Shown in pieces: positions 10,248 to 31,204 of a DNA stretch of 32,000 nucleotides. Under the pieces are notes generated by a model. It did not search any database. It was not told the DNA's origin and was given only the letters and a program-made list of their open reading frames with translations. Each line of letters opens with the position of its first letter. Position 1 is the stretch's first letter. The translations under genes were made by a program, and so were the position numbers. Origin of the DNA: Nitrosomonas europaea (GTDB taxonomy: Bacteria > Pseudomonadota > Gammaproteobacteria > Burkholderiales > Nitrosomonadaceae); the NCBI RefSeq assembly GCF_900167395.1, contig NZ_FUWK01000017.1, forward strand, positions 15,411 through 47,410, given 5' to 3'.

Positions 10248-10685
10248 ATGAAGTATGCGTCAAACATCCGGCCGTGTATGGTTTATGAACGCGGGTTCAC
10301 TTTGCTCGAATTGCTGGTCGTCATGGTCATCATCGGTTTGCTGGCGGCTTATGTCGGGCCCAAGTATTTTTCACAAGTGGGTAAATCCGAAGTCAAAATG
10401 GCGCAGGCTCAGATAGATTCCCTGGAAAAAGCACTGCATCAGTACCGGTTGGATGTTGGAACTTATCCCACGACCGAGCAGGGGCTGAATGCATTGCTCA
10501 CCGCCCCTGCCAATGAGCCGAGATGGCAGGGACCTTATTTGAGCAAGCGTCTGCCGGCCGATCCGTGGGGCAGGCCCTATCAATACAAATATCCGGGTGC
10601 GCAGAACGATTTCGATTTGTTCTCATTCGGCAAGGATGGCCAGCCCGGAGGGAGTGGTGAGGATGCGGATATCACCAACTGGTAA
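10248..10685 (+). CDS. gspG: GspG-family major pseudopilin
   Basis: Prepilin motif ERG|FTLLELLVVMVIIGLLAA with Glu at +5. C-terminal GspG signature DPWGRPYQYKYPG...FDLFSFGKDGQPGGSGEDADITNW. AAGGA upstream of ATG 10248. Internal ATG 10278 would give a typical 6-aa leader (MVYERG). Confidence 0.9.
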   Translation: MKYASNIRPCMVYERGFTLLELLVVMVIIGLLAAYVGPKYFSQVGKSEVKMAQAQIDSLEKALHQYRLDVGTYPTTEQGLNALLTAPANEPRWQGPYLSKRLPADPWGRPYQYKYPGAQNDFDLFSFGKDGQPGGSGEDADITNW

Positions 10686-10703
10686 CCGTATTCGATACCG
10701 CTG

Positions 10704-11888
10704 ATGCGTTACACGGTAAGAGCCTTGCTGGCCGGAAAAGGCGCTGTGCTGCTCGAACTCGATGCGGCCAGTGAAGCCGAGGTACGCAACCGGATCAGTG
10801 CTCAAGGGGGGGTGATCCTGAGTATACGGCGGAATTTTTCCGGTTTTCTGCCCAGATCGGGTTCCCGTTTTCCGCTGTCTGATTTTTCCCAGGAACTGCT
10901 TGCCTTGCTGACAGCCGGCTTGAGTCTGGTAGAGGGTATCGAAACACTGGTCGAGAAGGAAGAGGACAGTGTGACACGCGAGTTACTCCAGCAGATACTG
11001 GCGCGCTTGCGTGAAGGAGTAACGTTTTCGCGTGCGCTGGAATTCTATCCGCAGGTATTTCCGTCACTGTATGTCGCTACCATTCGTGCCAGCGAACAGA
11101 CGGGGGATCTGGGCGAAGCACTATCACGTTATCTCGTCTATCAGTCGCAAATGGATCTGGTGCGCAAAAAGCTGGTGGGGGCATCCATCTATCCGGTTCT
11201 GCTGCTGGTGCTGGGAGGCTTGGTAGCCATCTTCCTGCTGGTGTTCGTCGTTCCTAAATTCAGCGCCATTTATGAAGATATGGGTACGGATCTGCCCTGG
11301 ATGTCCATGCTGCTGATCGAGTGGGGGCATCTGGTGCAGAAGAATGGCTGGATGCTGGCAGGAATGGCAGCGCTCTTTCTGACAGCAGCGTTTTATACCT
11401 TTTCCCGGCCGCAGATCCGGGCTCATCTGTTGCGCGCGGTATGGCGCATTCCAACAATCGGCGAGAGGATGCGGGTCTATCAGCTTGCCCGTTTCTACAA
11501 AACGCTGGGGATGCTGCTGCGCGGCGGGATTCCCGTGACCCAGGCGCTGGAAATGGTCAGCGACCTGTTGCAGCCGCACTTTCGTCCACGGGTGAAAACA
11601 GCTGCTGCACTCATCCGTGAAGGCAAGGCTATTTCCAGTGCAATGCAGAGCGCAGAGCTGACCACTGCAGTGGGAAGCCGTATGCTGCGTGTGGGGGAGC
11701 GCACCGGGATGATGGGTGACATGATGGAACGCATCGGTAATTTTCACGATGAGGAAATCGGACGCTGGGTCGAATGGATGACCAAGCTGATCGAGCCATT
11801 GTTGATGGCAGTGATCGGAACCGTCATCGGCGGCATCATCATTCTCATGTACCTGCCGATTTTCGAACTGGCGGGGAGTATCAACTGA
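10704..11888 (+). CDS. gspF: Type IV filament inner-membrane platform protein (GspF/PilC family)
   Basis: 394 aa with the duplicated GspF-type domain organisation and three hydrophobic segments. Stop overlaps the ATPase start (TGATG). Confidence 0.9.
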   Translation: MRYTVRALLAGKGAVLLELDAASEAEVRNRISAQGGVILSIRRNFSGFLPRSGSRFPLSDFSQELLALLTAGLSLVEGIETLVEKEEDSVTRELLQQILARLREGVTFSRALEFYPQVFPSLYVATIRASEQTGDLGEALSRYLVYQSQMDLVRKKLVGASIYPVLLLVLGGLVAIFLLVFVVPKFSAIYEDMGTDLPWMSMLLIEWGHLVQKNGWMLAGMAALFLTAAFYTFSRPQIRAHLLRAVWRIPTIGERMRVYQLARFYKTLGMLLRGGIPVTQALEMVSDLLQPHFRPRVKTAAALIREGKAISSAMQSAELTTAVGSRMLRVGERTGMMGDMMERIGNFHDEEIGRWVEWMTKLIEPLLMAVIGTVIGGIIILMYLPIFELAGSIN

Positions 11889-13579
11889 TGCAGACCAACG
11901 TCGCCCTGCCGGATAAACCGGCGATCGATCCGGTTATGCTCAGCCAGGCGCGTGAACAGGCCATCGCTCGCAGCACCTCACTGATCAGAGTACTGGAAGA
12001 AACTTATCAGGGCACGCCAGATGAACTGGTGACTGTACTGGGAGAAGTGCTGCGCATGCCGGTACTGACCATGAATGATCTGTATGCATTGCATCCGGCT
12101 TTTGACAGACTGCCTTTTGCACTGGCTGCCAAACGTGAATGCATGTTGCTGCAGAAACAGGATCAATCGTATCTGCTGGCGGTGAGTGATCCTTTCCGGA
12201 CGGGCCTGCGCGACTGGGTGGAGGAATATGTACCGGTGGATGCATTGTGGCATCTGGTGCATCCGGCAGATCTGGCGGCCTTTTTCGTGCAGCAGGAACA
12301 GACCATGCGTGCGATGGACAATGTGCTGTCTTCTGTTCAGGAAAATCTGATCCAGAGTGGTATCGAGGAGTTATCACTCAAAACGATTCACGAAGGGACC
12401 AGTCAGGTGGTGCGTCTGGTTCATTCGACCCTGTACGATGCGCATAAATCGCAGGCAAGCGACATTCATCTGGAGACCACGCCGGGCGCATTGTCCATCA
12501 AATACCGGATCGACGGTGTGCTGACCAGTATAGGCACCATGCAGGAGGCGAATCTGGCCGAGCAGGTGATTTCCCGGATCAAGGTCATGTCGGATCTGGA
12601 TATTGCCGAGCGCCGCATTCCGCAGGATGGCCGTTTCAAGGTTTCCATCCAGGGGCGGGAAATCGATTTCCGCGTATCGGTCATGCCGAGCATTTTTGGG
12701 GAAGATGCCGTGTTGCGGATCCTGGATCGTCAGGCGCTGACCGATCATGTCGAAGGATTGACACTGAACCAATTGGGATTCAACGCAACTTCCATTGCCA
12801 GCGTACGCCGGCTCAGCGCGGAGCCGTATGGCATGCTGCTGGTGACCGGGCCGACCGGCAGCGGCAAGACGACTTCGCTGTATGCCGCCATTTCGGAAGT
12901 CAATCACGGCCATGACAAAATCATTACGATCGAGGATCCAATCGAATATCAGTTGCCTGGTGTATTGCAGATACCGGTCAACGAGAAAAAGGGGCTGACT
13001 TTCGCCCGCGGATTGCGTTCGATTCTGCGGCACGATCCTGACAAAATCATGGTGGGTGAAATTCGCGATGCCGAAACGGCACAGATTGCAATTCAGGCTG
13101 CACTCACGGGGCATCTGGTCTTTACCACGGTTCATGCCAACAACGTGTTTGACGTGATTGGCCGGTTTGCACACATGGGTGTTGACCCTTACAGTTTTGT
13201 TTCGGCACTGAATGGCATCGTGGCGCAGCGGCTGGTGCGCCTGCTGTGCCCGAATTGCATGGTTGCAGAACAGCCGGATCAGCAGATGATCGCAGATTCG
13301 GGGATTACCCCGGAACAGGCAGAGCAGTTCGATTTTCGCTCTGCCAAAGGGTGCGGCCATTGCCGGGGTAGCGGTTATCGCGGGCGCAGCGCAATTGCTG
13401 AGATTTTGCTGCTGAATGATGAAATCCGTGAGCTGATCATTGCGCAGGCACCAATTCGTCGCATCAAGGAGGCAGCCCGGCTCAACGGCACCCGTTTCTT
13501 GCGTGAAGCGGCGCTGGATATGGTTAAAACCGGACAGACCAGCTTACAGGAGGCCAATCGTGTCACTGTCGTGGCGTAA
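11888..13579 (+). CDS. gspE: Assembly ATPase (GspE/PilB family)
   Basis: Walker A GPTGSGKTT, Asp box ITIEDPIEY, Walker B DPDKIMVGEIRD, His box TGHLVFTTVHAN. Tetracysteine zinc motif CPNC...CGHC, typical of extension ATPases rather than PilT. T2SSE_N-like N-terminus. ATG 11888 chosen over ORF start 11774, which overlaps gspF. Confidence 0.92.
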   Translation: MQTNVALPDKPAIDPVMLSQAREQAIARSTSLIRVLEETYQGTPDELVTVLGEVLRMPVLTMNDLYALHPAFDRLPFALAAKRECMLLQKQDQSYLLAVSDPFRTGLRDWVEEYVPVDALWHLVHPADLAAFFVQQEQTMRAMDNVLSSVQENLIQSGIEELSLKTIHEGTSQVVRLVHSTLYDAHKSQASDIHLETTPGALSIKYRIDGVLTSIGTMQEANLAEQVISRIKVMSDLDIAERRIPQDGRFKVSIQGREIDFRVSVMPSIFGEDAVLRILDRQALTDHVEGLTLNQLGFNATSIASVRRLSAEPYGMLLVTGPTGSGKTTSLYAAISEVNHGHDKIITIEDPIEYQLPGVLQIPVNEKKGLTFARGLRSILRHDPDKIMVGEIRDAETAQIAIQAALTGHLVFTTVHANNVFDVIGRFAHMGVDPYSFVSALNGIVAQRLVRLLCPNCMVAEQPDQQMIADSGITPEQAEQFDFRSAKGCGHCRGSGYRGRSAIAEILLLNDEIRELIIAQAPIRRIKEAARLNGTRFLREAALDMVKTGQTSLQEANRVTVVA

Positions 13580-14405
13580 TCGGATTCAGATTTTTCTGGC
13601 TCCGGATCGGGTCGATCTGACGGGGATTGCACGCGGTATCAGGCCTGTGCAGCAGTTCAGGCAATCAGGCGTGTGTGTTCAGGAAAATGATTCAAGACAG
13701 CAGTGGAAAGCGCCTCTGCGATTGCTGGAACAGATGATCGGACAGATGGATGATCGTTTCAGGCGGGGTAGCGAGTTGCATATCACGCTATCCAATCACT
13801 TCGTTCGCTATGGTGTCATCGCACCGCAGCCTTCCCTGGCGAATCCGGATGAATTGATGGCTTATGCCGGTTTCCAGATGCGCGAAATTTACGGTGAACG
13901 TATCGATGACTGGGAACTCAGCCTGAGTACCTGGGACCCTTATGGCGGCGCATTGTGTGCGGCCATCGCACGCGATTTGCAGTCAGAGCTGATAATGTTC
14001 GCCCGGCAATACGATACCCGGTTTGCGTGCATAGAACCTTATCTTGCTGCGGCGCTGGATCACTGGTCGAAGCGGCTGGTTGAAAAGCAGGTGTGGTTTG
14101 TTCTGGTGGAAACAGGGCGGTTCTGCCTGGTTGTGCTGTCCGAGGGCGCCTGGCGTTGTGCACGCAACCAGAGAGTCGTGGAGAATCTGCAGGAAGAACT
14201 GTTGGCAGCACTGGAACAGGAATCGATCATTCTCAGCCCGGATCGGTCGGTAGAGCGGGTGTATGTGTTCGCTCCCGAATTGACCGGACAGTTACCGGTG
14301 CATGATCTCCGCTGGCAGTTCGTACGCCTGCCAGATGAAAAACATCCCGCACCTTCGTATTTTCCCGGGGTAACAGGAATGGATGACAGCCAGAATCATG
14401 CGTAG
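13560..14405 (+). CDS. PilM/GspL-like cytoplasmic assembly protein (tentative)
   Basis: About 281 aa from GTG 13560, a 20-nt overlap with the ATPase gene. No TM segment. Assignment rests on position directly before PilN/O-like genes and on size; no nucleotide-binding motif recognised. Confidence 0.5.
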   Translation: MSLSWRNRIQIFLAPDRVDLTGIARGIRPVQQFRQSGVCVQENDSRQQWKAPLRLLEQMIGQMDDRFRRGSELHITLSNHFVRYGVIAPQPSLANPDELMAYAGFQMREIYGERIDDWELSLSTWDPYGGALCAAIARDLQSELIMFARQYDTRFACIEPYLAAALDHWSKRLVEKQVWFVLVETGRFCLVVLSEGAWRCARNQRVVENLQEELLAALEQESIILSPDRSVERVYVFAPELTGQLPVHDLRWQFVRLPDEKHPAPSYFPGVTGMDDSQNHA

Positions 14406-14934
14406 TCTGAAACTGAATTTCCCCTACCGCAGGCAGCAGATTCCACTGGTGGATTATCTGCTGCTGTTTCTGGGAATGGTGCTGCTGCTTGCAGTGATGT
14501 ATACGCTCAAGCAGACCATGTCGAAAATCACGTACTGGGAAGCACGCGAGGCGCGCATCGTTCAGCAGCAGAAACACACCAGGCAGCCCCGAACGCCGAT
14601 GGCGCGCATCAATAAAGCCACACAGCAGGAGCTTAAACAGGCGGATGATATTCTGCGCCAGCTCAATCTACCCTGGGAAGCGTTGTTCGATGCGCTGGAA
14701 CTGGCTGCCAGCGAGCAGATTGCACTGCTGTCGCTGCAGCCCAGTGTTACCGGTCAGACCATCCGTATTACGGGTGAAGCGCGAGATCTTGCCGCTCTGG
14801 TGGAGTATGTCCAGGCACTCGAACTGGAGCCGGTACTGAAAAATGCGCATTTGGCCAGCTATAAAGCCCGGCAGGATCATCTACGCCGTCCCATTGTTTT
14901 TTCAATCATTGCAACGTGGCACGAATCGCTTTAG
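14398..14934 (+). CDS. PilN-like bitopic inner-membrane assembly protein
   Basis: N-terminal KLNFPYRRQQ resembles the PilN NLLPxR motif. It is followed by one TM helix (LVDYLLLFLGMVLLLAVMY) and a periplasmic coiled-coil plus alpha/beta region. ATG overlaps the upstream stop. Confidence 0.55.
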   Translation: MRSLKLNFPYRRQQIPLVDYLLLFLGMVLLLAVMYTLKQTMSKITYWEAREARIVQQQKHTRQPRTPMARINKATQQELKQADDILRQLNLPWEALFDALELAASEQIALLSLQPSVTGQTIRITGEARDLAALVEYVQALELEPVLKNAHLASYKARQDHLRRPIVFSIIATWHESL

Positions 14935-15470
14935 AAAACTGGCTGGTCAGGGCACGTTGGCAGGTTACCCGTCTGGGGACCGTCGGCCGGGCAGGGGCGG
15001 GATTGCTCGTGTTGACGCTGGTATTTTTTATAGCGGCAGTCATGCCCCAGAAGGAGCGCCTGAAAGAGCTGAAAAGCAAAGTACAGGTAATGCAGCAGGC
15101 ACAGCCTGATTCTGCCGGGCAGACAAAGCTGAACAATAATCAGGCATTGCAGGTTTTTTATGATTTCCTTCCGCGCAGTGATTCTTCCCCTTACTGGATC
15201 AGTGAACTCGACAGGATCGCCAAAGACAGTGGTGTGGAGCTGAATAGCAGTGATTGCCGGCTGAAGGTGGAAAAAGAATCGAAACTGGTACGTTATGAGA
15301 TTCAATTGCCGTTGCGCGGGACCTATCCCCAGATTCGCGCATTCATTGCAAGCGCATTGCAGGCCGTGCCGGCACTCGCGCTGGCTGATATCATCATCAG
15401 GCGCGAAACCATACAGGCTGGCAGAGTGGATGCGCGCCTGAACATGCACCTTTATCTGAATGACTACTAA
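14916..15470 (+). CDS. PilO/GspM-like bitopic inner-membrane assembly protein
   Basis: 184 aa with a GTG start overlapping the upstream gene by 19 nt. One TM helix (GAGLLVLTLVFFIAAV), a coiled-coil (KERLKELKSKVQVMQQ) and a C-terminal ferredoxin-like-sized domain. Confidence 0.5.
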   Translation: MARIALENWLVRARWQVTRLGTVGRAGAGLLVLTLVFFIAAVMPQKERLKELKSKVQVMQQAQPDSAGQTKLNNNQALQVFYDFLPRSDSSPYWISELDRIAKDSGVELNSSDCRLKVEKESKLVRYEIQLPLRGTYPQIRAFIASALQAVPALALADIIIRRETIQAGRVDARLNMHLYLNDY

Positions 15471-15561
15471 GCATTTATCTTCGTTATCCAAATCACTTCT
15501 GGCAGTCCTGGCGGCCGTGTTCTCCAACCTGCTTCATTGCCGGGTTTTCAGTGGAATCTGA
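15460..15561 (+). CDS. Unannotated 33-codon small ORF encoding a hydrophobic peptide (speculative)
   Basis: ATG 15460 overlaps the PilO-like stop by 11 nt. TGA 15559-15561 lies 1 nt before ATG 15563 of the next gene. Peptide MTTKHLSSLSKSLLAVLAAVFSNLLHCRVFSGI has one TM or signal-like segment. It is below the ORF-track cutoff. Confidence 0.25.
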   Translation: MTTKHLSSLSKSLLAVLAAVFSNLLHCRVFSGI

Positions 15562-15562
15562 C

Positions 15563-16120
15563 ATGGCCGGCACACTTTACCGGAAACTGATTCTCTGGGG
15601 TGCTCTGGCGGCTACCGTACTGGCTGCGTTGCTGGTCGATGAGGGGACTGAGTTATCCGTGGATGATGTGGTGCAGCCGGCAGTGGATATTTCCGCTGAC
15701 AGGCGTACTGCCGGACAAACCCGACAAATACGGCAAACACACGAAACATTACCGGTCGATCAGCTGGGAAAACGGAAATTCAGCGCCAAGGCGGACGATA
15801 TATTCGCTGTGACGTCCTGGGAGCCCAAACGTACTGCATCTACTGATTTTAACCCGCAGATCTTCCAGCCTCGGAAGGAGGAGGTGGTAAGGCGGCCATC
15901 CGCGCCACCATTGCAGTTCGAATATCTGGGCCGGGTCGTTTCCGAAGGGAAGATCCGGGTCTTTCTCGCCCAGGCAGATCAGAATTATGTTGCCGGTGCG
16001 GGGGAGCGGATCGGCACTGAATACCGGATCGACCGGATCCGGGAAGATACGATCGAACTGACTTATCTTCCGCTGGGTATCAGACAGACATTGACTATCG
16101 ATCAGGGAACCTTTGATTAA
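15563..16120 (+). CDS. PilP/GspC-like periplasmic protein, membrane-anchored (tentative)
   Basis: N-terminal anchor LILWGALAATVLAALLV, then a linker and a C-terminal beta-rich region (LQFEYLGRVVSEGKIRVFLAQADQNYVAGAGERIGTEYRIDRIREDTIELTYL) like PilP/GspC HR domains. It sits immediately before the secretin. The last 5 codons and the stop lie inside MITE copy B. Confidence 0.45.
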   Translation: MAGTLYRKLILWGALAATVLAALLVDEGTELSVDDVVQPAVDISADRRTAGQTRQIRQTHETLPVDQLGKRKFSAKADDIFAVTSWEPKRTASTDFNPQIFQPRKEEVVRRPSAPPLQFEYLGRVVSEGKIRVFLAQADQNYVAGAGERIGTEYRIDRIREDTIELTYLPLGIRQTLTIDQGTFD

Positions 16121-16210
16121 GTCCTCCATGAGCCGCATTGCAGGCAAAATCGTGATGATCGCAAGAAGCGCGACAAAGGTTGTAGCTATTGGGACTTGAT
16201 CAGAGGTTCC
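16106..16210. mobile_element. MITE-like element, copy B (105 bp)
   Basis: Left end GGAACCTTTGATTAAGTCC; reverse complement of right end GGAACCTCTGATCAAGTCC (17/19). Shares TCCATGAGCCGCA and right sub-terminal sequence with copy A at 407-577. Confidence 0.6.
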
Positions 16211-16226
16211 TTAAATATCTGGAAAA

Positions 16227-18524
16227 GTGGGGATGAATACAACAAAAAGAATCTTGATATTGCTGCTGCTCGCATTGATCACCGGTTGTGCGATGCATAC
16301 GACGCGAAATCCATCTTTTCTGGAAGGAAAACGGTTGATTGCAGAAGGGCGGCTGGAAGAGGGTCTGGGCAAGCTGGAACAGGCCGCTCGTGAGGAACCG
16401 GATGATAGAGAAGTCGGTGCGACGCTGGCCAGGGAACGTGACACCATCATCGGCCAGATTCTGTTCGAGGCGGATAACGCCCGGCTGGCTGGCAATCTGG
16501 ATCAGGCCGAGCAGAATTATCAGCGTGTACTGAATATCAGGGCCAGTAGTGAACGTGCCCGGGAAGGATTGGATGCGGTTGATCTGGAGCGCCGCCATAT
16601 CGTTCTGGTCAATCAGGCAAAAGAGGCACTTGCGCATGGTGATGTGGACGGAGCGGAAAAAATCGTAAGGGGGGTACTGGCCGATAATCCGATGCAATCT
16701 GAAGCGAGACAACTGATCAAGGCGCTCAGTGAACAGATTGCACGAGCCGAGATGTCTGAATTGTCTCTGATAACCGAATTCAGCAAGCCCATTACCATGG
16801 AGTTCCGCGATACATCGCTGAAAACCATGTTTGAGTTGATCTCGCGCACGGCCGGCATCAATTTCGTATTCGATCGTAATGTTCAGCAGGAAGCAACGGC
16901 TTCAATCTTCGTCCGTGACAATTCGATTGAAGATGTGCTGAAACTGATGCTCCTGACCAATCAGCTCGCGTACAAGGTACTCAACAGCAACACGCTGCTG
17001 ATCTATCCGGATACACCCGCCAAGCAGAAGGATTATCAGGAGCTGGTCGTGCGCAGCTTTCACGTTGCCAATACGGATGTCAAACAGATGGTGGCCATGA
17101 TTCGTGGACTGGTCAAGGCACGTGACATTTACGTCAATGAGAAACTCAACCTGTTCGTGATACGGGATACGCTGGAGATGATCCGATTGGTGGAACGTCT
17201 GGTTGCCATCAACGATTTTCCCGATCCGGAAGTGATGCTGGATGTGGTAGTACTGGAAGTGAAACGTGACAGCACGCTCGATCTGGGGCCAAATATGCCT
17301 ACTTCGGTGACATTCAGTGCCGTTCCCGGTATAGGTACACCCGCTCAGGCAGCAGCGGATTCCGTGGTTAAAATGAGCATGATCAAGAATACCGGCTTCG
17401 AAGGGTTGCGGAGTTTCACTATCAGCAATCAGGCCAGAATCGATTTCGGCAGGACCCTGACCAACGCGGATGTGCTGGCCAACCCCCGCATTCGTGTCAA
17501 AAGCCGGGAGAAGGCAAAAATCCATATCGGTAACAAGGAGCCGGTGTTCACGGTCACGAATACAGCCAATGTCGGATCGGCTGCTTCAGCAACTTATATC
17601 GATGTCGGGCTGAAATTCGAAGTCGAACCGGTGGTCAGAACCAATAATGAGGTCACCTTGAAAGCGCTGCTGGAAGTCAGCAGTAATCTCGGTGAAAAAA
17701 GATCCGGGAGCGGAGAAAATGCAGCCACGGCCATCGTCATCGGCACACGTACGGCGGAAACGGTTCTGGAGCTGCGGGACGGAGAGACACAGGTGCTGGC
17801 CGGACTGATTCAGGATGATCTGAGCAGAGTAAGATCGGGTATCGCCGGGTTGACCGATATACCGGTACTGGGTGATATTTTCTCCAAGCAGGTCAGAAAA
17901 CATAACAAAACCGAAATAATTCTGCTGATCACACCGCATATCGTCCGCAATGTCATTCAGCCCAACCACTTTGAAAGCGAGTTTTATTCCGGTACGGCCA
18001 GCGCCGCCGGGAAACTGCCTGTAACCATACGGAAAACGGCACCGCGTTCACTGGCGATGGAATCCTCGAACAGTGCGTCAGATGGAGGATATATGTCATT
18101 AGGACGGGCACGATCTGCCGGGTTATTCGGAGCGGCACCCGATCTGTTTGAGGAAGCGGTTACGCAGGCAAGAGAGGCTTCTCCCTCATTGACGTTGCGT
18201 GTGCCGGAAAGTGTGGCGGGAGGCCGGGAATTTACCGCTACTGTCAGGCTGGTGACCCAGGATCCCATGCTATCCGGCGAATTGAACCTGACCTATGACC
18301 CGGATACTTTGGAACTGGTGGATGGCGGGGAAAAATCCGGAATGCGCAGCCTGAAGCTCGGCCGGGATCAATCCACCGGAATGACAGCGGTGCTGCGTTT
18401 CAAGGTGATCAGCACAAATGCAACTTCAACTGAAATTGCTTTACAGAATTTACAGGTGCGGGATGAGACAGGGCAGCCGGTTGAAGTGAATCTGCCACCG
18501 GCAGCGAGTATCAGGATTCAGTGA
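16227..18524 (+). CDS. Secretin-family outer-membrane channel with N-terminal lipoprotein signal + TPR region and C-terminal cohesin-like domain
   Basis: Lipobox LLALITGC. TPR-like helical repeats over roughly aa 30-170. Secretin_N-like repeats. Canonical secretin core (ANPRIRVKSREKAKIHIG, YIDVGLKFEVEPVV, RDGETQVLAGLIQDD, GIAGLTDIPVLGDIFS, EIILLITPHIV). A low-complexity linker precedes a 114-aa tail with the cohesin-like pattern GGREFTATVRL...LNLTYDPDTLELV. Confidence 0.9.
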   Translation: MGMNTTKRILILLLLALITGCAMHTTRNPSFLEGKRLIAEGRLEEGLGKLEQAAREEPDDREVGATLARERDTIIGQILFEADNARLAGNLDQAEQNYQRVLNIRASSERAREGLDAVDLERRHIVLVNQAKEALAHGDVDGAEKIVRGVLADNPMQSEARQLIKALSEQIARAEMSELSLITEFSKPITMEFRDTSLKTMFELISRTAGINFVFDRNVQQEATASIFVRDNSIEDVLKLMLLTNQLAYKVLNSNTLLIYPDTPAKQKDYQELVVRSFHVANTDVKQMVAMIRGLVKARDIYVNEKLNLFVIRDTLEMIRLVERLVAINDFPDPEVMLDVVVLEVKRDSTLDLGPNMPTSVTFSAVPGIGTPAQAAADSVVKMSMIKNTGFEGLRSFTISNQARIDFGRTLTNADVLANPRIRVKSREKAKIHIGNKEPVFTVTNTANVGSAASATYIDVGLKFEVEPVVRTNNEVTLKALLEVSSNLGEKRSGSGENAATAIVIGTRTAETVLELRDGETQVLAGLIQDDLSRVRSGIAGLTDIPVLGDIFSKQVRKHNKTEIILLITPHIVRNVIQPNHFESEFYSGTASAAGKLPVTIRKTAPRSLAMESSNSASDGGYMSLGRARSAGLFGAAPDLFEEAVTQAREASPSLTLRVPESVAGGREFTATVRLVTQDPMLSGELNLTYDPDTLELVDGGEKSGMRSLKLGRDQSTGMTAVLRFKVISTNATSTEIALQNLQVRDETGQPVEVNLPPAASIRIQ

Positions 18525-18553
18525 TGACATTTCTTCGTCTTTTCTGAGCGGAT

Positions 18554-19036
18554 ATGTTGCAGACAGCATCTTGCCGCGGATTTACCCTGATCGAGCTGAT
18601 GATCGTAGTGGCAGTCATGGGAATCCTGGCTTCCGCGGCGATGCCATTAGGTGAAATGGTCGTCAAACGTGAAAAGGAGCGAGAGTTGCGTATAGCACTG
18701 CGCCAGATCCGCACGGCGATCGATGCCTATAAGCAGGCGGCGGATGAGGGATTGGTCGAAAAAAAGGCTGATGAAACCGGCTATCCTCATCGGCTGGAAG
18801 ATCTGGATACGGGCATGGACGACGTAAAAGACCCTGACAGCAAGAAAATCTTTTTCATGCGCCGTTTGCCGCGCGATCCAATGTTTCCGGATACTGAGGT
18901 ACCTGCTGCCGAAACCTGGGGAAAACGCAGTTATGCCAGCCCGCCCGACAGTCCGGAGGAGGGAGATGACATTTACGATGTTTATTCCCTTTCCGAAAAA
19001 GCGGGGTTGAACGGGATTCCCTACAATCAATGGTAA
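18554..19036 (+). CDS. Prepilin-type (GspG-like) pseudopilin 2
   Basis: MLQTASCRG|FTLIELMIVVAVMGILA class III signal with Glu+5. N-terminal helix followed by VKREKERELRIALRQIRTAIDAYK, as in GspG-type pseudopilins. Confidence 0.8.
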   Translation: MLQTASCRGFTLIELMIVVAVMGILASAAMPLGEMVVKREKERELRIALRQIRTAIDAYKQAADEGLVEKKADETGYPHRLEDLDTGMDDVKDPDSKKIFFMRRLPRDPMFPDTEVPAAETWGKRSYASPPDSPEEGDDIYDVYSLSEKAGLNGIPYNQW

Positions 19037-19467
19037 AGCTCGCTGATCAGACTGTGATCCAATCGGTATCAAACCGATTGAAGCGGCCCGGTGGCCATTG
19101 GCGTGAACGGGGGTTCACGCTGATCGAATTACTGGTGGTGATGGTCGTTATTGCTATCCTCCTCACGATTGTGACGCCGCGTTACTTCAATTCTGTCGAC
19201 CGGGCGAAGGAAACGGTACTCAAGCAGAATCTCAGTATTCTGCGCGACGCGATCGACAAATATTTTGCCGATACCGGCAAATATCCGACCGATCTGCATC
19301 AACTGGTCGAGGATCGTTATATTCGCGCGATACCTGTCGATCCGATTACCGAGGAAAACGTCTGGGTGGAAATTCCGCCGCCCGATCCTGAAATGGAAGG
19401 CGTGTTCGATGTGCATACGACTTCCGACCGGCAGGCGCTGGACGGGACATTTTATGAGAAATGGTGA
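19030..19467 (+). CDS. Prepilin-type (GspG-like) pseudopilin 3 with an unusually long leader
   Basis: RERG|FTLIELLVVMVVIAILL, then RAKETVLKQNLSILRDAIDKYFADTGKYPTDL (GspG-like). ATG 19030 overlaps the upstream stop (ATGGTAA) and gives a 28-aa leader. TTG 19078 would give 12 aa. Confidence 0.8.
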   Translation: MVKLADQTVIQSVSNRLKRPGGHWRERGFTLIELLVVMVVIAILLTIVTPRYFNSVDRAKETVLKQNLSILRDAIDKYFADTGKYPTDLHQLVEDRYIRAIPVDPITEENVWVEIPPPDPEMEGVFDVHTTSDRQALDGTFYEKW

Positions 19468-19469
19468 CA

Positions 19470-20105
19470 ATGTCATGCCGGCAAGAACGGGGATATATTT
19501 ATATCTGGATGCTGTTTGCTGTTATGCTTGCGGGCGTGATGCTGGCTGCTGCCGGGTTGATCTGGCAGACAGAAGTCAAACGGGAAAAGGAGCTGGAACT
19601 GCTGTTCGCCGGTGACCAGTTCCGGCGGGCGATCGAGTCCTACTATAACGATTCTCAAGTGTCGGGGAGAGCGGGGGAGGCGGGTGCCAGCCGCTACCCG
19701 GCATCTCTTGAACAGTTGCTCAAGGATGAGCGTTCTCTGGTAGTGAAACGGCATCTCAGAAGAGTTTACCCCGATCCGATGACGAACAGCTACAACTGGG
19801 GGCTGGTCAGGCAGCAGGACGGCGGGATTACCGGTGTCTACAGTCTTTCGACTGGCGTGCCGATCAAGCGTGCCAATTTTCCGGCAGATTACATTGCTTT
19901 TGAAAAGGCCGGGAATTATCAGGGTTGGAAATTTGTCCATGCTGCCAGTACTGCAGGAGGGCAGGAAAAACAGCAGGCGGAAGGTCGGGGAAACATACAG
20001 GGCGATACGTCGATGCCGGGATTGCCGGGTACTGGATTTAATCCGCTTCCACAAAACCAGCCTGCTCCGAATCTATCTCCGCCAACCGGCAATGATGCGT
20101 TTTAA
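19470..20105 (+). CDS. Atypical pseudopilin-like protein (degenerate class III signal, Pro/Gln-rich tail)
   Basis: MSCRQERG|YIYIWMLFAVMLAGVMLAAAG is hydrophobic like a pilin helix but has Tyr at +1 and no Glu at +5. It shares VKREKELELLF...FRRAIESYY with pseudopilin 2. C-terminus MPGLPGTGFNPLPQNQPAPNLSPPTG. Alternative ATG at 19461. Confidence 0.55.
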   Translation: MSCRQERGYIYIWMLFAVMLAGVMLAAAGLIWQTEVKREKELELLFAGDQFRRAIESYYNDSQVSGRAGEAGASRYPASLEQLLKDERSLVVKRHLRRVYPDPMTNSYNWGLVRQQDGGITGVYSLSTGVPIKRANFPADYIAFEKAGNYQGWKFVHAASTAGGQEKQQAEGRGNIQGDTSMPGLPGTGFNPLPQNQPAPNLSPPTGNDAF

Positions 20106-20278
20106 AGGAAATCTGGAAAGAGGAAAGAATAGCGAATGAGTGCAGAGGTTTTTCCGGACTTACTCGAGTGAAATATCTTGAAATCAGTGGATATGCCGTA
20201 ATTAGTAACTAACATAAGAACCGGATTTGTTGTTTGGAAGTCTCAGTACAGATAAAAGGTTGCCGAAGGCCATACGAA

Positions 20279-21988
20279 ATGAAAGTTATTTTGACGATAC
20301 AGTTAGCATTATTGCTGAGCATGGCGGGATGTACCCAACTCCCCAGAACGGGGGATGCCATTGCTCATGGTTCCGCAGCTTCCGCCGGTGCAGCACCCGC
20401 CACGGAACTGACTGCTGATTCCCTCTTTGATTTTCTGATGGGAGAAACGGCCCTGCAGCGAAATATGCCAGACGTTGCAGTGGAAAGTTTCATCCGGCTG
20501 GCAAGAGAAACACGCAACCCGAGGATCGCAGAACATGCGACTGATATCGCACTGCGGACGCGTCATTTCGGGGAGGCAAAAGAGGCCATCGATTTATGGG
20601 TAGCACTGGAACCTGATTCCATGCATGCGCGCCAGGCGGCAGTAGCGCTGTTCGTTGCGAACGGTCAGCTCGATAATGTCCGTCCCCACGTTGAACAGTT
20701 GTTGAAGCTGGAGCCGGAAACCGTCGATAAAGCGTTCATGCAGATCAACAAACTCCTGTCTCATCATTCAGACAGAGAAGCCGTGCTGAAACTGGTGCAG
20801 CAGCTTGCAGCATCCTACCCTGATTTGCCGGAAGCCCATTTTGCTGTATCCCAGGCTGCATGGTCTGCCAATGAATTCAAACTCGCGGCAAAAGCCATGA
20901 ATCAAGCGCTCGAATTACGGCCGGAATGGGAAATGGCCGCCGTGCATCAGGGGCAGATTCTGCAGAAAATTGATAAAGACAAGGCATTGTCTTTTTACGA
21001 TCAGTATCTCGACCGATTTCCCAGAGCCAATGATATACGGATTGCCTATATCCGCATGCTCATGGAGGAGAGAGAATTTGACCGGGGGCGTGAGCAGTTC
21101 CAGAAACTGGAGCAGGTAAACCCCTCCAACCCTGATATTGCGCTGGCGATCGGCCTTTTATCTGCCGAGCTGGATGACCTGGGGAGTGCAGAAAAGTATT
21201 TCAAACGTGCACTGCAACTCGGGTTTGAGGACACCAACACAATTCATTTCAATCTGGGGCGTATCCATGAAATTGCACAGCACAATGCTGAAGCAATGGA
21301 TGCCTACCTCAGGGTGACGGGTGGGGAACGTTATATTGCTGCCCGGGTGCGCTATGCTTTCTTGCTGGCAAAGCGGGATGGAATAGCCGCTGCCAGAAGA
21401 TATCTGAAAACCGTTCAGGTTGAAAATGAACAGCAGCGTACACAGTTGCTGATTTCTGAAGCACAGCTGCTGCGGGATAGTGGCGAGTTTCGTGGCGCGT
21501 ATGATCTGCTGGATGCTTATCTCAGAAAGTATCCGGATCAGGTCGAACTGCTGTACGACCGGGCACTGATGGCTGACAAGATCGGCAAGCTGGATGTACT
21601 GGAACAGGATTTGCGCAAACTGATTGAGTTGAGACCGGATAACGCCCATGCCTATAATGCGTTGGGCTACAGCCTGGCTGAGCGTGGTCTGCAACTGCCG
21701 GAAGCATTGGCACTGATCCAGAAAGCCATCGAACTTTCTCCCGATGATCCCTACATCATGGACAGCCTTGGTTGGGTTTATTACCGTATGGGTGATCTGA
21801 AAAAAGGGGTCAATTACCTGAAGCTTGCCTTCGACACTCGCTCCGATCCTGAAATTGCAGCACACTACGGCGAATTGCTCTGGATGAACGGTGCAAAGGA
21901 AGATGCCGAAAAAATCTGGCAGTCGGCGCTGGAAGAACATCCTGAAAATGAACTGCTGCTGGATACCGTCAAGCGGTTCATGAAATAG
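20279..21988 (+). CDS. TPR-repeat lipoprotein
   Basis: MKVILTIQLALLLSMAGC lipobox, followed by about 550 aa of recognisable TPR units (e.g. AHAYNALGYSLAERGLQLPEALALIQKAIELSPDDPYIMDSLGWVYYRMGDLKKGVNYLKLAF). Last gene on the cluster strand. Confidence 0.8.
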   Translation: MKVILTIQLALLLSMAGCTQLPRTGDAIAHGSAASAGAAPATELTADSLFDFLMGETALQRNMPDVAVESFIRLARETRNPRIAEHATDIALRTRHFGEAKEAIDLWVALEPDSMHARQAAVALFVANGQLDNVRPHVEQLLKLEPETVDKAFMQINKLLSHHSDREAVLKLVQQLAASYPDLPEAHFAVSQAAWSANEFKLAAKAMNQALELRPEWEMAAVHQGQILQKIDKDKALSFYDQYLDRFPRANDIRIAYIRMLMEEREFDRGREQFQKLEQVNPSNPDIALAIGLLSAELDDLGSAEKYFKRALQLGFEDTNTIHFNLGRIHEIAQHNAEAMDAYLRVTGGERYIAARVRYAFLLAKRDGIAAARRYLKTVQVENEQQRTQLLISEAQLLRDSGEFRGAYDLLDAYLRKYPDQVELLYDRALMADKIGKLDVLEQDLRKLIELRPDNAHAYNALGYSLAERGLQLPEALALIQKAIELSPDDPYIMDSLGWVYYRMGDLKKGVNYLKLAFDTRSDPEIAAHYGELLWMNGAKEDAEKIWQSALEEHPENELLLDTVKRFMK

Positions 21989-22306
21989 GCAGCAGTTAGG
22001 GAACTTCTGAAAAACGCAGTGATGGCAATGTTTTGCAGAGGTTTCTTAGCCGCTCGATTGCTGATATAACCAACCGCACCGCTACTGCCGTTTTTGTGAA
22101 CGTCGCCAGGTGTTTTTCAGGATCAGGGTAAAAACCGGATAGCGGCCACAACCAGTCCCCTTACCATCAGCGTGGCGGCAAATGAGCAGACCATAAAGCG
22201 ATCGATCGAGTGGCTAACGATTCTAACCGCTTATCTATTTGTTCAAACCATTAACAAAAGAATGATTCAGGTCTCTCGGAAATTACCGGGCCATCTCATT
22301 CGCAAG

Positions 22307-22582
22307 TTAATAAACAACATCGTGGCTTCCAATATTGATCGGGATAATTTGCTTATCCTCGATCAGGAATTCCAGCGTAATCCGATAAGAAAGATTAATT
22401 GAAATTGCATATATCCCCTGAAGTTTGCCGCTTAATACATGTAATCGCAGGGAAGGATGATAGGGATTAGTTTGGAGAATTTGCAGCGTTCTCAGATATT
22501 GTGTACGCAAATCAGGGTGACGCCTCAACCAGCGTGCCGCCCGCTGGTTATAAGCATCCGTAAAGATCAGCGAATAGCCCAT
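22307..22582 (-). CDS. RelE/ParE-superfamily toxin
   Basis: 91 aa; NPYHPSLRLHVLSGKLQGIYAISINLSYRITLEF...INIGSHDVVY matches the RelE/StbE-type pattern (HxLxGxLxG...S..YRI...GSHDxVY). Begins 3 nt after the antitoxin gene. Confidence 0.8.
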   Translation of the reverse strand: MGYSLIFTDAYNQRAARWLRRHPDLRTQYLRTLQILQTNPYHPSLRLHVLSGKLQGIYAISINLSYRITLEFLIEDKQIIPINIGSHDVVY

Positions 22583-22585
22583 TTT

Positions 22586-22843
22586 TTACTTCAGCGTATC
22601 CAGCCGTGCAAGATGCGCTTCCGGCGATTCCTGCTCACAACGTCCGGCAGCAAGATCTGCCCGTGTTTCTGCCAGTGCGGCAGTCAGTTCACACTCTCGT
22701 AAATAATAGTAATGTTCCAGCTGCATGACGACATAGCGATCCTTGCCTCGCACAGCAATAATCGCTTCCGGTTGTTCCTCCAGTTGCGCTTCAATCGCCG
22801 CAATTCCTCTGGTCTTGAGGTCGTTTGCATTAATAGTATTCAT
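22586..22843 (-). CDS. Phd/YefM-family antitoxin
   Basis: 85 aa; N-terminal INANDLKTRGIAAIEAQLEEQPEAIIAVRGKDRYVVMQLEHY is typical of Phd/YefM. Lies upstream of the toxin. Confidence 0.8.
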   Translation of the reverse strand: MNTINANDLKTRGIAAIEAQLEEQPEAIIAVRGKDRYVVMQLEHYYYLRECELTAALAETRADLAAGRCEQESPEAHLARLDTLK

Positions 22844-22925
22844 TTATAACCTTTTAATCGTCTGTTACAAGCTGCTATTATACGTATTATTAATCACACT
22901 ATATTGAATGCTGTTAACCGTATGA

Positions 22926-23110
22926 ATTCTATTTTCCCGGTTTGGGGCAGGTGATGTGCTTGATGTTGAAATAGTTGATTACCATTGAGGGATGACGATT
23001 CGTATCGAAGATGCTGGAGCATATAGATTTCAGTGATATTGCTGAAGGTAGAAAATTACCTTCTGTTCATCCTGTGAAATTCTGCAAGAAGAATTCCTTG
23101 TTCTGACTCC
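22926..23110 (+). pseudogene. Decayed higB-higA (killer protein / VapI-type antitoxin) remnant
   Basis: 22926-22988 encodes only ILFSRFGAGDVLDVEIVDYH*, the conserved C-terminus of HigB killer proteins. Downstream RKLPSVHP then (after restoring 1 nt) GEILQEEFLVLTP matches the HigA/VapI N-terminus. Premature stops and a frameshift are present. Weaker traces may extend to about 23260. Confidence 0.5.
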
Positions 23111-23387
23111 CCATGCGCTTCCCTGGCTCTATAAATTTTCGCTTATGATATTCGTGCCGGGACGCCGCGCAACTCTTCTGAATCGCTACGGCCCCGGGGG
23201 CTCGTGATGAACTGTCCATTCATGGTCAGACTGGAAAAGGGTGATCCACATTGCGAACAGCCTCAATAGTCAAAGATGGAACCGGCTTCTATCCCTTCTC
23301 TTCCTCGACTAAAATATGTTTATTCAGATGAGTGTTCAGGCATAGAGTGACAGTGAGCGCTGTGTTGCGAAACGTGGTGATCCGGTT

Positions 23388-23759
23388 TTACGAATCAGTT
23401 TGATAAGTCTGTCCCAGTTTTCGTTTGTGGCCGTAGCTGGTCAGTTTGTTTTGCAGTTGTGCCATCCAGGGTTCGGTAATGGCACGGATTTCGGCATCAC
23501 GTTCCAGTATGCCGTGGATGAGGCTGATCTTTTTTTTCTTCTGTTCTTCGCTCAACTGCTCGTAAGTGTGCTGTTCCATCAGCCAGGTGGTCAGGCGTTT
23601 ACAATCCTGTTCCAATGCTACCAGCTTGTCCCAGTCGCTGTTTTTTGCCGCTTGCAGCATCTGGTCAGTGATTGCCAGTATGGCTTCATATGTGGTGATG
23701 ATCTGCATACCGTTTTTATTGTCTTCGGGTGAATATCCGGATGAGGTGTCGGGCTTCAT
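23388..23759 (-). CDS. fliT: Flagellar export chaperone FliT-like
   Basis: Small, helical and acidic (ILAITDQMLQAAKNSDWDKLVALEQDCKRL...), directly after fliS. ATG 23759 overlaps the fliS stop (ATGA). Alternative ATG 23708 gives 106 aa. Assigned mainly by position and character. Confidence 0.55.
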   Translation of the reverse strand: MKPDTSSGYSPEDNKNGMQIITTYEAILAITDQMLQAAKNSDWDKLVALEQDCKRLTTWLMEQHTYEQLSEEQKKKKISLIHGILERDAEIRAITEPWMAQLQNKLTSYGHKRKLGQTYQTDS

Positions 23760-28286: not shown

Positions 28287-28354
28287 CGTTAAGGCTATGT
28301 CGTGACTGCAAAGCAAACCACGCTATGAGCCGGTTGTTGAATGCACATAGTTGG

Positions 28355-28430
28355 GGTCAGGTCTGGTATCAAGAAAATAAGTACAGCAAGCGTTATTGAT
28401 TCTGGATCTGCCCCTTTGATTGCTTGATTT
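28355..28430. repeat. Island repeat, copy 1 (40-nt core 28368-28407)
   Basis: Core ATCAAGAAAATAAGTACAGCAAGCGTTATTGATTCTGGAT is 36/40 identical to 30638-30677, with weaker flanking similarity. Confidence 0.6.
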
Positions 28431-28772: not shown

Positions 28773-28821
28773 TTTCATCGGTTTAGCCTATAACTTGCCC
28801 GGCCAGGAGGTTGACTATACA

Positions 28822-28842
28822 ATGGAACCATTATGGTTCCAT
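28822..28842. promoter_or_regulatory. Perfect palindrome, probable VapB operator
   Basis: ATGGAACCAT-T-ATGGTTCCAT (10-bp arms, 1-nt centre), 26 nt upstream of the vapB ATG and next to TTGACT / TATACAAT-like promoter hexamers. Confidence 0.5.
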
Positions 28843-28867
28843 TTCAATTGGAAAACTTAGAAACGCC

Positions 28868-29113
28868 ATGCCTACAACCTTAACACTGAAAAATATTCCG
28901 GATGATGTGTACGAACGGCTCAAAGTTGCCGCAGAAATGCACCGCCGCAGCCTCAACAGTGAAATCATTGTGTGCCTTGAGACCGTGCTCATGCCAACCA
29001 GAATCTCCCCCGGCGAACGACTGGAGCGCGCCCGTCAGTTACGGGCTGGGCTGAACTCCGAAAAATTTCAGGCATGCGATATTGACGTTATGAAAAGACA
29101 GGGGCGCCCATGA
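28868..29113 (+). CDS. vapB: VapB-type antitoxin (ribbon-helix-helix, FitA/Arc-like)
   Basis: MPTTLTLKNIPDDVYERLKVAAEMHRRSLNSEIIVCLE is a typical RHH antitoxin N-terminus. Stop overlaps the vapC ATG (ATGA). Confidence 0.8.
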   Translation: MPTTLTLKNIPDDVYERLKVAAEMHRRSLNSEIIVCLETVLMPTRISPGERLERARQLRAGLNSEKFQACDIDVMKRQGRP

Positions 29114-29517
29114 TTGTCGTGGATTCAAATGTACTGGCTTATTTTTATCTGCCCGGCGAATACACCGCCGCTGCAGAAGCCTTGTTTGAACATGATCCTG
29201 ATTGGGTAGCACCAGTTTTGTGGCGAAGTGAGTTTCGAAACATTCTGGCCGGGTATCTCAGGCGCGGAAGCCTGACATTCTTGCAGGCATATAATCTCCA
29301 GTGTGAGGCAGAGGATTTACTCGCTGGCGCTGAGTATGAAGTGAATTCATTCAGTATTCTGGAGTTGGTGCGTGACAGCGAATGCTCAGCTCATGACTGC
29401 GAATTTGTTGCACTGGCAATAAAGCTGGGTGCGAAGCTGGTAACGATGGACGGTAAATTGCTAAGGATGTTTCCAGATATCGCATTCGCACTCTCTGCGA
29501 GTCAACGTAGCAGCTAA
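29110..29517 (+). CDS. vapC: VapC PIN-domain toxin
   Basis: MIVVDSNVLAYFYL (first acidic PIN residue), internal E and D residues, and C-terminal LVTMDGKLL. 135 aa. Confidence 0.88.
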   Translation: MIVVDSNVLAYFYLPGEYTAAAEALFEHDPDWVAPVLWRSEFRNILAGYLRRGSLTFLQAYNLQCEAEDLLAGAEYEVNSFSILELVRDSECSAHDCEFVALAIKLGAKLVTMDGKLLRMFPDIAFALSASQRSS

Positions 29518-30526: not shown

Positions 30527-30624
30527 GGAAAGCGGGAAACAATAGGAGAGAGACCACGGTTTCCTGACTGGCTTGCCGCTTTATTCTGACGAGAACAGTT
30601 ATGCTGCGCTGCCCGCATGATCGA

Positions 30625-30700
30625 GGTCAAGTCGTGAATCAAGAAAATAAGTATAACAAGCGTCATCGATTCTGGATTTTTGACTTGTTGATTTGCTGAT
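30625..30700. repeat. Island repeat, copy 2 (40-nt core 30638-30677)
   Basis: See copy 1; 36/40 identity in the core. Confidence 0.6.
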
Positions 30701-31200: not shown

Positions 31201-31204
31201 TTCA

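Follow-up and report, generated by a model that had tools for sequence, protein, structure and literature searches.

What kind of machine is encoded between positions 10,248 and 21,988 of a 32,000-nucleotide stretch of the Nitrosomonas europaea genome (contig NZ_FUWK01000017.1; the whole stretch is called the window below)? A sequence-only reading had described this cluster as a non-canonical type IV filament machine that combines traits of type II secretion systems (T2SSs) and of the type IVa pilus (T4aP). We propose that it is probably the Nitrosomonas copy of a widespread, mostly betaproteobacterial T2SS-like subtype, that is, a secretion machine with a GspG pseudopilus on a T4aP-style PilMNOP layout. 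Within a T2SS subtype that has been described but barely studied, it is an ordinary representative, and it is no new kind of machine.

The interval 10248-21988 is filled by 12 open reading frames (ORFs), all on the + strand, and the tight same-strand packing reported earlier was found on ORF calling. They are the genes of the major pseudopilin (G), the platform protein (F) and the assembly ATPase (E), followed by orf4, a PilN-like gene (N), a PilO/GspM-like gene (O), orf7, the secretin gene (D), three pseudopilin-like genes (p1, p2 and p3), and a gene for a tetratricopeptide repeat (TPR) lipoprotein. Thus, the G-F-E order at the 5' end with the secretin gene after the small genes was correctly read. 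The overlaps and gaps are also as described, including 106 nt upstream of the secretin gene, if the GTG at 16227 is the start, and 173 nt before the TPR gene, but a gap of 80-92 nt between the PilO-like gene and orf7 had been omitted. In a scan of a genome collection with one genome per species, the best 80 of 157 loci, all from Nitrosomonas or Nitrosospira, were compared. The synteny held in all 80 as far as their length allows: the order G-F-E-orf4-N-O-orf7-D-p1-p2-p3 was found in every locus long enough to display it. These loci span 46-94% secretin identity, and the lowest identities to the window proteins are 74% for G, 65-69% for F, 73% for E and 33-40% for orf4, N and orf7. Since the 11-gene order is kept in this way, the arrangement is not due to chance, and since both order and sequence are conserved across the loci, all the cassette genes are real and under selection.

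The closest described counterpart of the cassette lies outside the family. In the megaplasmid locus of Ralstonia solanacearum (L086), all 11 genes are one-to-one orthologous to those of the window, in the same order and orientation, by BLASTP and profiles. Identities range overall from 29 to 61% (G 61%, F 44%, E 53%, D 36%, p1 and p2 53% each, and p3 40%), and the four genes annotated as hypothetical match their Ralstonia counterparts in profile searches at E = 3e-15 to 2e-26. The Ralstonia cluster has been described as an unorthodox T2SS with seven core genes and four hypothetical genes between gspE and gspD (PMC5080846, PMC6428702). Both clusters consist of G-F-E, four small genes, the secretin gene and then the pseudopilin genes; in both, the N-terminal part of the secretin has the layout TPR-STN-N1-secretin and the third pseudopilin does not have Glu5. 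They differ in that only residues 1-696 of the window secretin align to that of Ralstonia, from which no cohesin domain follows for the latter; in addition, the Ralstonia p3 has no low-complexity tail and the Ralstonia locus has an adjoining Rhs gene and no TPR lipoprotein neighbour.

The subtype is common. An exhaustive search gave 879 secretin clusters (50%-identity representatives) at E <= 1e-30, at least 150 of which align over residues ~5-600, that is, TPR, STN, N1 and secretin domains, with or without the C-terminal domain. A profile built from the most distant representatives recovered more than 6,700 clusters at 90% identity, among them members from Gallionella, Denitratisoma, Jeongeupia, Variovorax, Rhodocyclaceae and Paucimonas, and Pfam Cohesin is present in almost all of the top ones. 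The contigs that carry four of the secretin representatives, which include a Burkholderiales metagenome-assembled genome and metagenome contigs, have the same cassette, and so does a Burkholderia plasmid. A plasmid collection yielded 138 matching records, 110 of them from Ralstonia and others from Paraburkholderia, Burkholderia, Cupriavidus, Variovorax and Janthinobacterium. Among the contigs with the cassette, a variant was seen (L084/L085, 2738-4210 and 12155-13582) that has the three minor pseudopilin genes before gspG and a secretin without the cohesin domain; in it an OmpA-family peptidoglycan-binding protein is encoded directly after the cassette.

A second described system with a similar order is that of the Geobacteraceae, pulF-pulE-pulM-pulN-pulO-pulP-pulQ (a secretin lipoprotein)-pulG-oxpG (PMC3543383 Table S4). 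According to the Pelobacter carbinolicus genome paper (PMC3543383), which cites Mehta et al. 2006 for a type II secretion system termed 'atypical', the Pul system is required for secretion of the multicopper oxidase OmpB. The Nitrosomonas cluster shares with this Pul/Oxp system the succession of platform, ATPase, M, N, O, P, secretin lipoprotein and then pseudopilins, but it has a GspG gene first, and it has three pseudopilin genes after the secretin gene whereas Pul/Oxp has two there and the third (tklG) elsewhere. Published BLAST results link these systems as well. In Table 2 of Haft 2006, NE1609 ('T2SS protein E') matches RSp0148 (4e-149), GSU1783 (3e-132) and Pcar_0131 (= pulE-2; 1e-128), together with proteins of Nitrosospira, Thiobacillus, P. 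fluorescens, Dechloromonas and Azoarcus and with PP3483 of P. putida, which puts the Xcm system among the nearest relatives; all the matches listed there are at 1e-128 or better and the next is at 1e-91. We infer that NE1609 is the window E gene because of its lineage, the megaplasmid and pul identities of its matches, and its similarity to Nitrosospira. The Xcm system of Pseudomonas putida reportedly exports a Mn oxidase, and its Gsp-related cluster is said to have no homologues of XcpP/Y/Z.

A survey of the type IV filament superfamily by Denise et al. did not single out this subtype. Our literature searches returned nothing relevant on a Nitrosomonas T2SS, on NE16xx locus tags, on Xcm/PP3483 or on cohesin together with secretin; no work on the structure or mechanism of the system came up, nor any study of it at all in ammonia oxidisers. 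The sequence-only reading implied too much novelty, because this gene order is already on record for a T2SS variant, in Ralstonia and in the Geobacteraceae, which goes part of the way to what that reading had named as its refutation.

The identity of the subunits points to a secretion pseudopilus. The major pseudopilin, G (10248-10685), scores 185.6 bits against the GspG equivalog TIGR01710, whose cut-off is 88.85, and 153 bits against Pfam T2SSG, and hence the GspG signature noticed before is borne out. G has the class III signal ...ERG↓FTLLELL (the arrow marks the presumptive cleavage site) and a C-terminal GKDGQPGGSGEDADI loop, and its identity across Nitrosomonadaceae is 74-98%. By direct reading of the sequence, mature G has no Cys and therefore no pilin disulfide loop. 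The extra GspG paralogues claimed earlier are p1 and p2. The first, p1 (18554-19036), has the signal RG↓FTLIELM, a Pfam N_methyl match of 35.4 bits, and a profile match to the GspG filament chain 5wda_A over positions 13-121 at E = 1e-7. The second, the short p2 (19030-19467), has the signal RG↓FTLIELL, scores 63.8 bits against TIGR01710, under its cut-off, and partially matches Pfam T2SSG. The third gene product, p3 (19461-20105), is a separate family without Glu5. It has no Pfam, NCBIfam or PDB sequence match, and in place of G↓F-T-L-x-E its signal is G↓(Y/F)-x-Y-x-(W/G/T/V), Glu5 being absent in 22 of 22 aligned orthologues. Its globular core measures ~150 aa, its tail is of low complexity with many P, S, G and Q residues, and profile searches found its orthologues in every homologous cluster (E = 2e-39 to 3e-65). 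Among T2SS pseudopilins the absence of Glu5 is the hallmark of GspK. The NCBIfam GspH and GspJ models gave sub-cut-off matches that cover the N-terminal helix alone.

The platform protein and the ATPase are less easily placed. F (10704-11888), of the GspF/PilC family, matches Pfam T2SSF in two stretches (180 bits); it scores 256.1 bits against NCBIfam GspF, whose cut-off is 424, and 250 bits against HofC, and because the GspF score is under the cut-off it belongs to the superfamily yet lies outside the GspF equivalog. E (11888-13579), of the GspE/PilB superfamily, starts with a 1-nt overlap of the F stop codon. Its NCBIfam scores are 493.4 bits for PilB and 492.9 bits for GspE (cut-off 630.25), both under the respective cut-offs, and it is equidistant in the PDB comparison also (PilB 369 bits, GspE 354 bits). 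It has an N-terminal domain of the T2SSE_N/MshEN type and the tetracysteine motif CPNC...CGHC. The Pfam MshEN match is 28.1 bits, and this model also covers ordinary T2SSE_N domains; the RLGxx(L/V/I)(L/V/I)xxG motif for binding of cyclic di-GMP was not seen on direct reading of the E N-terminus.

The four small genes would form the alignment module, and here the sequence-only reading of PilM-N-O-P followed by a secretin agrees with our results, PilM by structure, PilN and PilO by Pfam scores over the gathering thresholds and PilP by a marginal profile match. orf4 (13560-14405), which corresponds to 'PulM' in Geobacteraceae naming, starts at a GTG 6 nt after AGGAGG and overlaps E by 20 nt. It has no Pfam, NCBIfam or PDB match by sequence, and a profile of its orthologues finds ~228 database proteins, all 'hypothetical' and without Pfam domains, nearly all the named ones being from Nitrosomonas. 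The AlphaFold2 (AF2) model made with 34 sequences has a predicted local distance difference test (pLDDT) score of 87.9 and a predicted template modelling (pTM) score of 0.87. Foldseek matches this model to PilM (3jc8_Ma, E = 8e-12; Thermus PilM 2ych_A, TM 0.64) and, at E = 1e-9 to 1e-7, to the PulL, EpsL and GspL cytoplasmic domains, and orf4 is thus predicted to be a soluble protein with the actin-like fold of PilM and cytoplasmic GspL. The bitopic PilN-like protein (14383-14934) scores 30.8 bits against Pfam PilN (gathering threshold 22.8), and its orthologues conserve an N-terminal L-x-L-x-F-P peptide. The bitopic PilO/GspM-like protein (14916-15470) scores 23.6 bits against Pfam PilO (gathering threshold 22), 17.4 bits against T2SSM_b, and 22.7 bits against NCBIfam GspM_XpsM (cut-off 60; E = 6e-5).

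The last of the four, orf7 (15551-16120), carries a transmembrane helix at its N-terminus and lacks both a lipobox Cys and a PDZ domain, and no Pfam or NCBIfam model matches it. A profile of 22 orthologues marginally matches the beta-domain of Neisseria PilP (4av2_M, E = 0.0094; 2ivw_A, E = 0.015), and it matches the Ralstonia orthologue at E = 2e-26. The fold of the PilP beta-domain is common to the HR domain of GspC. From its sequence orf7 looks like a minimal, membrane-anchored GspC/PilP. On a conjugative Burkholderia plasmid, the homologues of orf4 and PilN form a single protein of 423 aa (L087, 6468-7739), in which the orf4 profile matches residues 64-175 and the PilN profile 288-443; this fusion has a GspL-like architecture. 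Together, orf4 and the PilN-like protein are a split GspL with the PilN-like protein as its periplasmic half. Therefore GspC and GspL are not simply missing from the cluster, since the former has a counterpart in orf7 and the latter in this pair.

The secretin (16227/16233-18524) is a lipoprotein with the lipobox LITGC, a TPR region (~16299-16766), the STN/N0 domain (16857-17009), N1 (17049-17222), the secretin domain (17460-17948) and, after a disordered linker of ~60 residues, a cohesin-fold domain (~18186-18518). The fused secretin claimed from the sequence is thus real: a lipobox and TPR region stand at its N-terminus, and a domain with the cohesin fold ends it. Pfam scores are 117 bits for Secretin, 28.9 for STN and 27.9 for Secretin_N, with TPR_19/TPR_2 also matched, and the NCBIfam scores are 128.8 bits vs a cut-off of 351.35 for GspD, 122.9 vs 284.35 for PilQ and 88.5 vs 250.2 for MshL. 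The C-terminal beta-sandwich was modelled by AF2 with pLDDT >90, and the top 11 Foldseek matches of this domain are all cohesins (2jh2_C, E = 5.7e-7). Pfam Cohesin matches the window secretin weakly (E = 0.0016); it is matched by 4 of 21 scanned C-termini, the best at 3.8e-14, and carried by nearly all the top database relatives. A PDB sequence search with the TPR region gave nothing useful. The version of the protein with the ATG start is present in databases, and the exact sequence with the GTG start was not found there.

When the cluster is set against canonical systems, it resembles the T2SS in having GspG at full equivalog score, the tetracysteine motif of the ATPase, a GspF-type platform, a secretin, a Glu5-less minor pseudopilin as GspK is, and no retraction ATPase. 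It differs from the canonical T2SS in that GspL is split in two genes, GspC is a transmembrane helix with an HR-like domain and without PDZ or coiled coil, GspH/I/J/K homologues are absent, the gene order is G-F-E...D, E, F and D are under the curated cut-offs, and the secretin has N0 and N1 only, TPR and cohesin additions and its own lipobox. With the PilMNOPQ genes of T4aP it shares separate PilM-fold, PilN, PilO and PilP-like genes before the secretin gene and the short N0+N1 part, but PilM exceeds orf4 in length by ~80 residues, orf7 has a transmembrane helix as its anchor and is not lipidated, there are no AMIN domains, PilA-type pilin, PilT/PilU or PilY1, and the platform, ATPase and pilin genes share an operon with the alignment genes. 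As for the MSH pilus, one locus combines PilMNOP-like genes with those for a secretin, a TPR protein (MshN in that system), an ATPase, a platform and several pilins; unlike the MSH locus, the cluster has no MshM-type ATPase, its major subunit is GspG and not MshA, and the MshL score is far under its cut-off. In Pfam and NCBIfam profile scans no PDZ-containing GspC and no GspH/I/J/K were found in the cluster, and no prepilin peptidase, PilT or PilY1 anywhere in the 32-kb window, in agreement with the earlier list of missing components.

A working model can be put together from these assignments. A prepilin peptidase encoded elsewhere would cleave G, p1 and p2 after the conserved Gly. The hexameric ATPase E would lie beneath the platform protein F and be held in place by orf4, which would grip the PilN-like protein by its conserved N-terminal peptide. 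That protein and the PilO/GspM-like one would make up the periplasmic alignment module, and orf7 would bridge this module and the N0 (STN) domain of the secretin. The N-terminal TPR region of the secretin itself probably replaces a separate pilotin, and ~15 C-terminal cohesin-fold domains would hang on flexible linkers in the periplasm as possible docking sites. A short GspG pseudopilus driven by ATP would then push folded periplasmic cargo through the secretin, with p1, p2 and the Glu5-less p3 priming or capping it, p3 perhaps as a GspK-like cap. In these terms, the PilO-like protein is GspM, orf7 is the minimal GspC and the whole is a T2SS built on a T4aP-style layout.

Several observations weigh against this proposal. 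F, E and the secretin are all under the curated T2SS equivalog cut-offs and fit the T4aP models equally well. The periplasmic part of the secretin, with N0 and N1 only, is PilQ-like, and the assignment of orf7 to PilP is made at E ~0.01. The GspH/I/J/K tip complex and the PDZ domain of GspC, which select cargo in model T2SSs, are absent, and no cargo is encoded in the cassette or nearby, so that the function is one we infer. The only functional data come from the pseudopilin (OxpG) mutant of Geobacter, as reported in a citing paper; the link between Nitrosomonas and Geobacter is one of gene order and published BLAST ranking, and the identification of NE1609 with the window E gene is indirect.

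Because of these T4aP-like traits the first alternative to be weighed is a non-retractile surface fibre for adhesion or biofilm formation, with G as the fibre subunit and p1-p3 as minor pilins. In its favour, the genes of the alignment module resemble PilM/N/O/P and are separate as they are in T4aP, the periplasmic part of the secretin is short, with N0 and N1, the ATPase and the secretin score as well against PilB and PilQ as against GspE and GspD, and there are four pilin-like genes, of which p3 has a long, disordered tail like an exposed tip. However, the major subunit is far above the GspG equivalog cut-off and has no pilin disulfide loop, no retraction ATPase, PilY1/PilC adhesin or large minor pilins were found, and the one characterised relative has a secretion phenotype (PMC3543383). 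We therefore favour secretion over a surface pilus because of the GspG major subunit, the lack of the disulfide loop, the lack of a retraction ATPase and tip adhesin, and the Geobacter phenotype, and consider a fibre unlikely, at perhaps one chance in a handful.

The genes downstream of p3 raise a different possibility, namely, that the Nitrosomonadaceae machine is an outer-membrane route for export or tethering of PEP-CTERM/exosortase substrates or other matrix proteins, which would be secretion of one particular class of cargo. Genes for EpsA (TIGR03020, 315.7 bits vs 170) and a PEP-CTERM protein lie directly after p3, at ~0.3-0.5 kb, in each of the five Nitrosospira loci that extend to this point (L074, L075, L077, L078 and L080). 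One to three PEP-CTERM proteins are encoded 0.3-0.8 kb after p3 in four loci of the N. oligotropha type (L035, L042, L049 and L051), and one 2 kb downstream in L011. The best family match of the TPR neighbour is PrsT, at a sub-threshold score, and NE1609 ranks 34th in the PEP-CTERM phylogenetic profile of Haft 2006. On the other hand, there is no such neighbour in ~40 of 68 loci, and the adjacency may be inherited from one or two events. Moreover, the system is present in Ralstonia, P. putida, P. fluorescens and Pelobacter, all of which the Haft table gives as PEP-CTERM-negative, and N. europaea PrsT appears, on our reading of Table 1 of that paper, to be a different gene, NE1444. Taken together, this route is doubtful, more so than a fibre.

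A related lead comes from a short motif. [ND]PF occurs in the secretin linker before the cohesin domain (17950-18190) in 55 of 70 loci, with 62 motifs vs 1.4 expected from shuffles, and in the p3 tail (19930-20105) in 27 of 78 loci, with 44 motifs vs 2.1 expected, in 23 of these loci within the last 12 residues. The counts among loci L001-L072 are ~20-40 times the shuffle expectation, and, given the common descent of the sequences, they reflect conservation and not independent events. The window itself has a degenerate form of the motif, none was seen among the linkers and p3 tails listed for Nitrosospira, and Ralstonia p3 has no tail. Since it is conserved in both the secretin linker and the p3 tail of Nitrosomonas, one may speculate that the cohesin ring and/or the TPR region of the secretin is a reader of short linear motifs that couples arrival of the p3 tip to gating or cargo hand-over, and, with the PEP-CTERM and EpsA genes beside the cluster in Nitrosospira and some Nitrosomonas taken into account, that the machine supplies the outer-membrane step that is missing for matrix proteins sorted by exosortase in ammonia oxidisers; we hold this to be a long shot.

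Export of a non-protein polymer (exopolysaccharide or 'slime') or DNA uptake, which has been suggested for some T2SS/T4P-like secretin systems, is very improbable here. Slime secretion in cyanobacteria and myxobacteria has been connected with T2SS-type secretins (PMC12475490), p2 has weak N-terminal matches to Hps pseudopilins (E ~1e-4), and the pul genes lie near DNA-uptake genes in Pelobacter (PMC3543383), but the Hps matches cover the generic N-terminal helix alone and no polysaccharide synthesis or ComEA/ComEC-type genes were found in the window or in the conserved flanks. Weakest of all, and hardly credible, is a decaying or silent remnant interrupted by the hairpin-forming element between orf7 and the secretin gene that is described next, since none of the 12 ORFs is disrupted, the 11 core genes are likewise intact and keep their synteny across 80 loci, and several independent Nitrosomonas assemblies have a secretin that is 100% identical.

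That element (16101-16213, no strand assigned) resembles a miniature inverted-repeat transposable element (MITE), and the earlier statement that a MITE fills the gap before the secretin gene was right, both of its termini being common to a second copy in the window at 402-580. The terminal inverted repeats are about 25-27 nt long (TAAGGAACCTCTGATCAAGT...), with 27-nt inverted ends in the 402-580 copy. The last codons and the stop of orf7 come from the element. As RNA it would fold with a 22-bp terminal stem (-48.7 kcal/mol, z = -4.1). The gap at its position is absent in most related loci, by locus coordinates.

The TPR lipoprotein gene (20279-21988) had been counted as a member of the cluster. 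It does adjoin p3 in 21 loci, of the europaea, eutropha, mobilis, communis and nitrosa types, but it is absent within 10 kb in the others, where the genes downstream of p3 vary. Its product has many TPR matches in Pfam and its best NCBIfam match is PrsT (134 bits vs a cut-off of 312). Because it is adjacent in some lineages only, the TPR lipoprotein is not a core component but a lineage-restricted neighbour whose membership in the system is uncertain; several of the 21 loci have kept the TPR gene despite a changed upstream flank, and for this reason some linkage is possible. A role as the core pilotin was rejected as the gene is missing beside the cluster in most lineages and as a TPR gene upstream of the cassette in a Burkholderiales homologue (L082) is unrelated. 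Other neighbours were noted in relatives: RHS-repeat/Tc-toxin-like genes adjoin the homologous cluster in Ralstonia (L086, 1-2629) and in a metagenome contig (L081, 11701-16986), and in Pelobacter the RHS gene Pcar_0129 adjoins the Pul-2 cluster (PMC3543383). A general link of the Nitrosomonadaceae system to RHS toxins was discarded, as a YD-repeat ORF was found in none of the 80 loci.

The window thus carries an unexceptional, typical copy of a T2SS variant that is common in environmental Betaproteobacteria, with thousands of secretin clusters of the TPR-STN-secretin-cohesin layout, and in which three or four of the eleven proteins have no family model and are annotated as 'hypothetical'. What is new is at the level of annotation: orf4 is modelled with a PilM/GspL fold, orf7 resembles PilP/GspC, the secretin bears a cohesin fold and the third pseudopilin is without Glu5; in addition, the systems of Nitrosomonas, Ralstonia and Geobacter are explicitly connected. 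With GspL split here and fused in one relative and with a minimal GspC, the platform looks intermediate between those of T4aP and T2SS and could inform the evolution of cargo selection. If the exported cargo were surface redox enzymes or biofilm matrix proteins, it would bear on biofilms in wastewater nitrification.

The genes around the cluster are housekeeping and motility genes and are unrelated to it: upstream in the window are dapF, an ABC exporter, cca, slt, gdhA and a FecI/FecR pair, and downstream are fliT-fliS-fliD-flaG-fliC and two toxin-antitoxin pairs. Pattern scans for sigma-70 promoters, terminators and sigma-54 promoters gave counts at shuffle expectation, and no regulatory element is claimed; scans of the window with Rfam and for tRNAs gave no match. 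The first 2 kb of the window has a G+C content of 0.60-0.66 vs 0.42-0.57 elsewhere, and on its - strand the region 1-2300 encodes an extracytoplasmic function (ECF) sigma factor paired with a FecR-type anti-sigma factor; the second MITE copy lies at the edge of this region. The ~1.4 kb that separates the TPR gene from fliT (22000-23400) has a G+C content of 0.45 and contains no ORF of >=100 aa and no Rfam or tRNA match. The two toxin-antitoxin pairs are at 28811-29517 and 30898-31588, one a FitA-like ribbon-helix-helix protein with a PIN toxin and the other a HigB toxin with a helix-turn-helix antitoxin, and a 62-nt direct repeat, 81% identical, is found a few hundred bases upstream of each pair (28346-28407 and 30616-30677).

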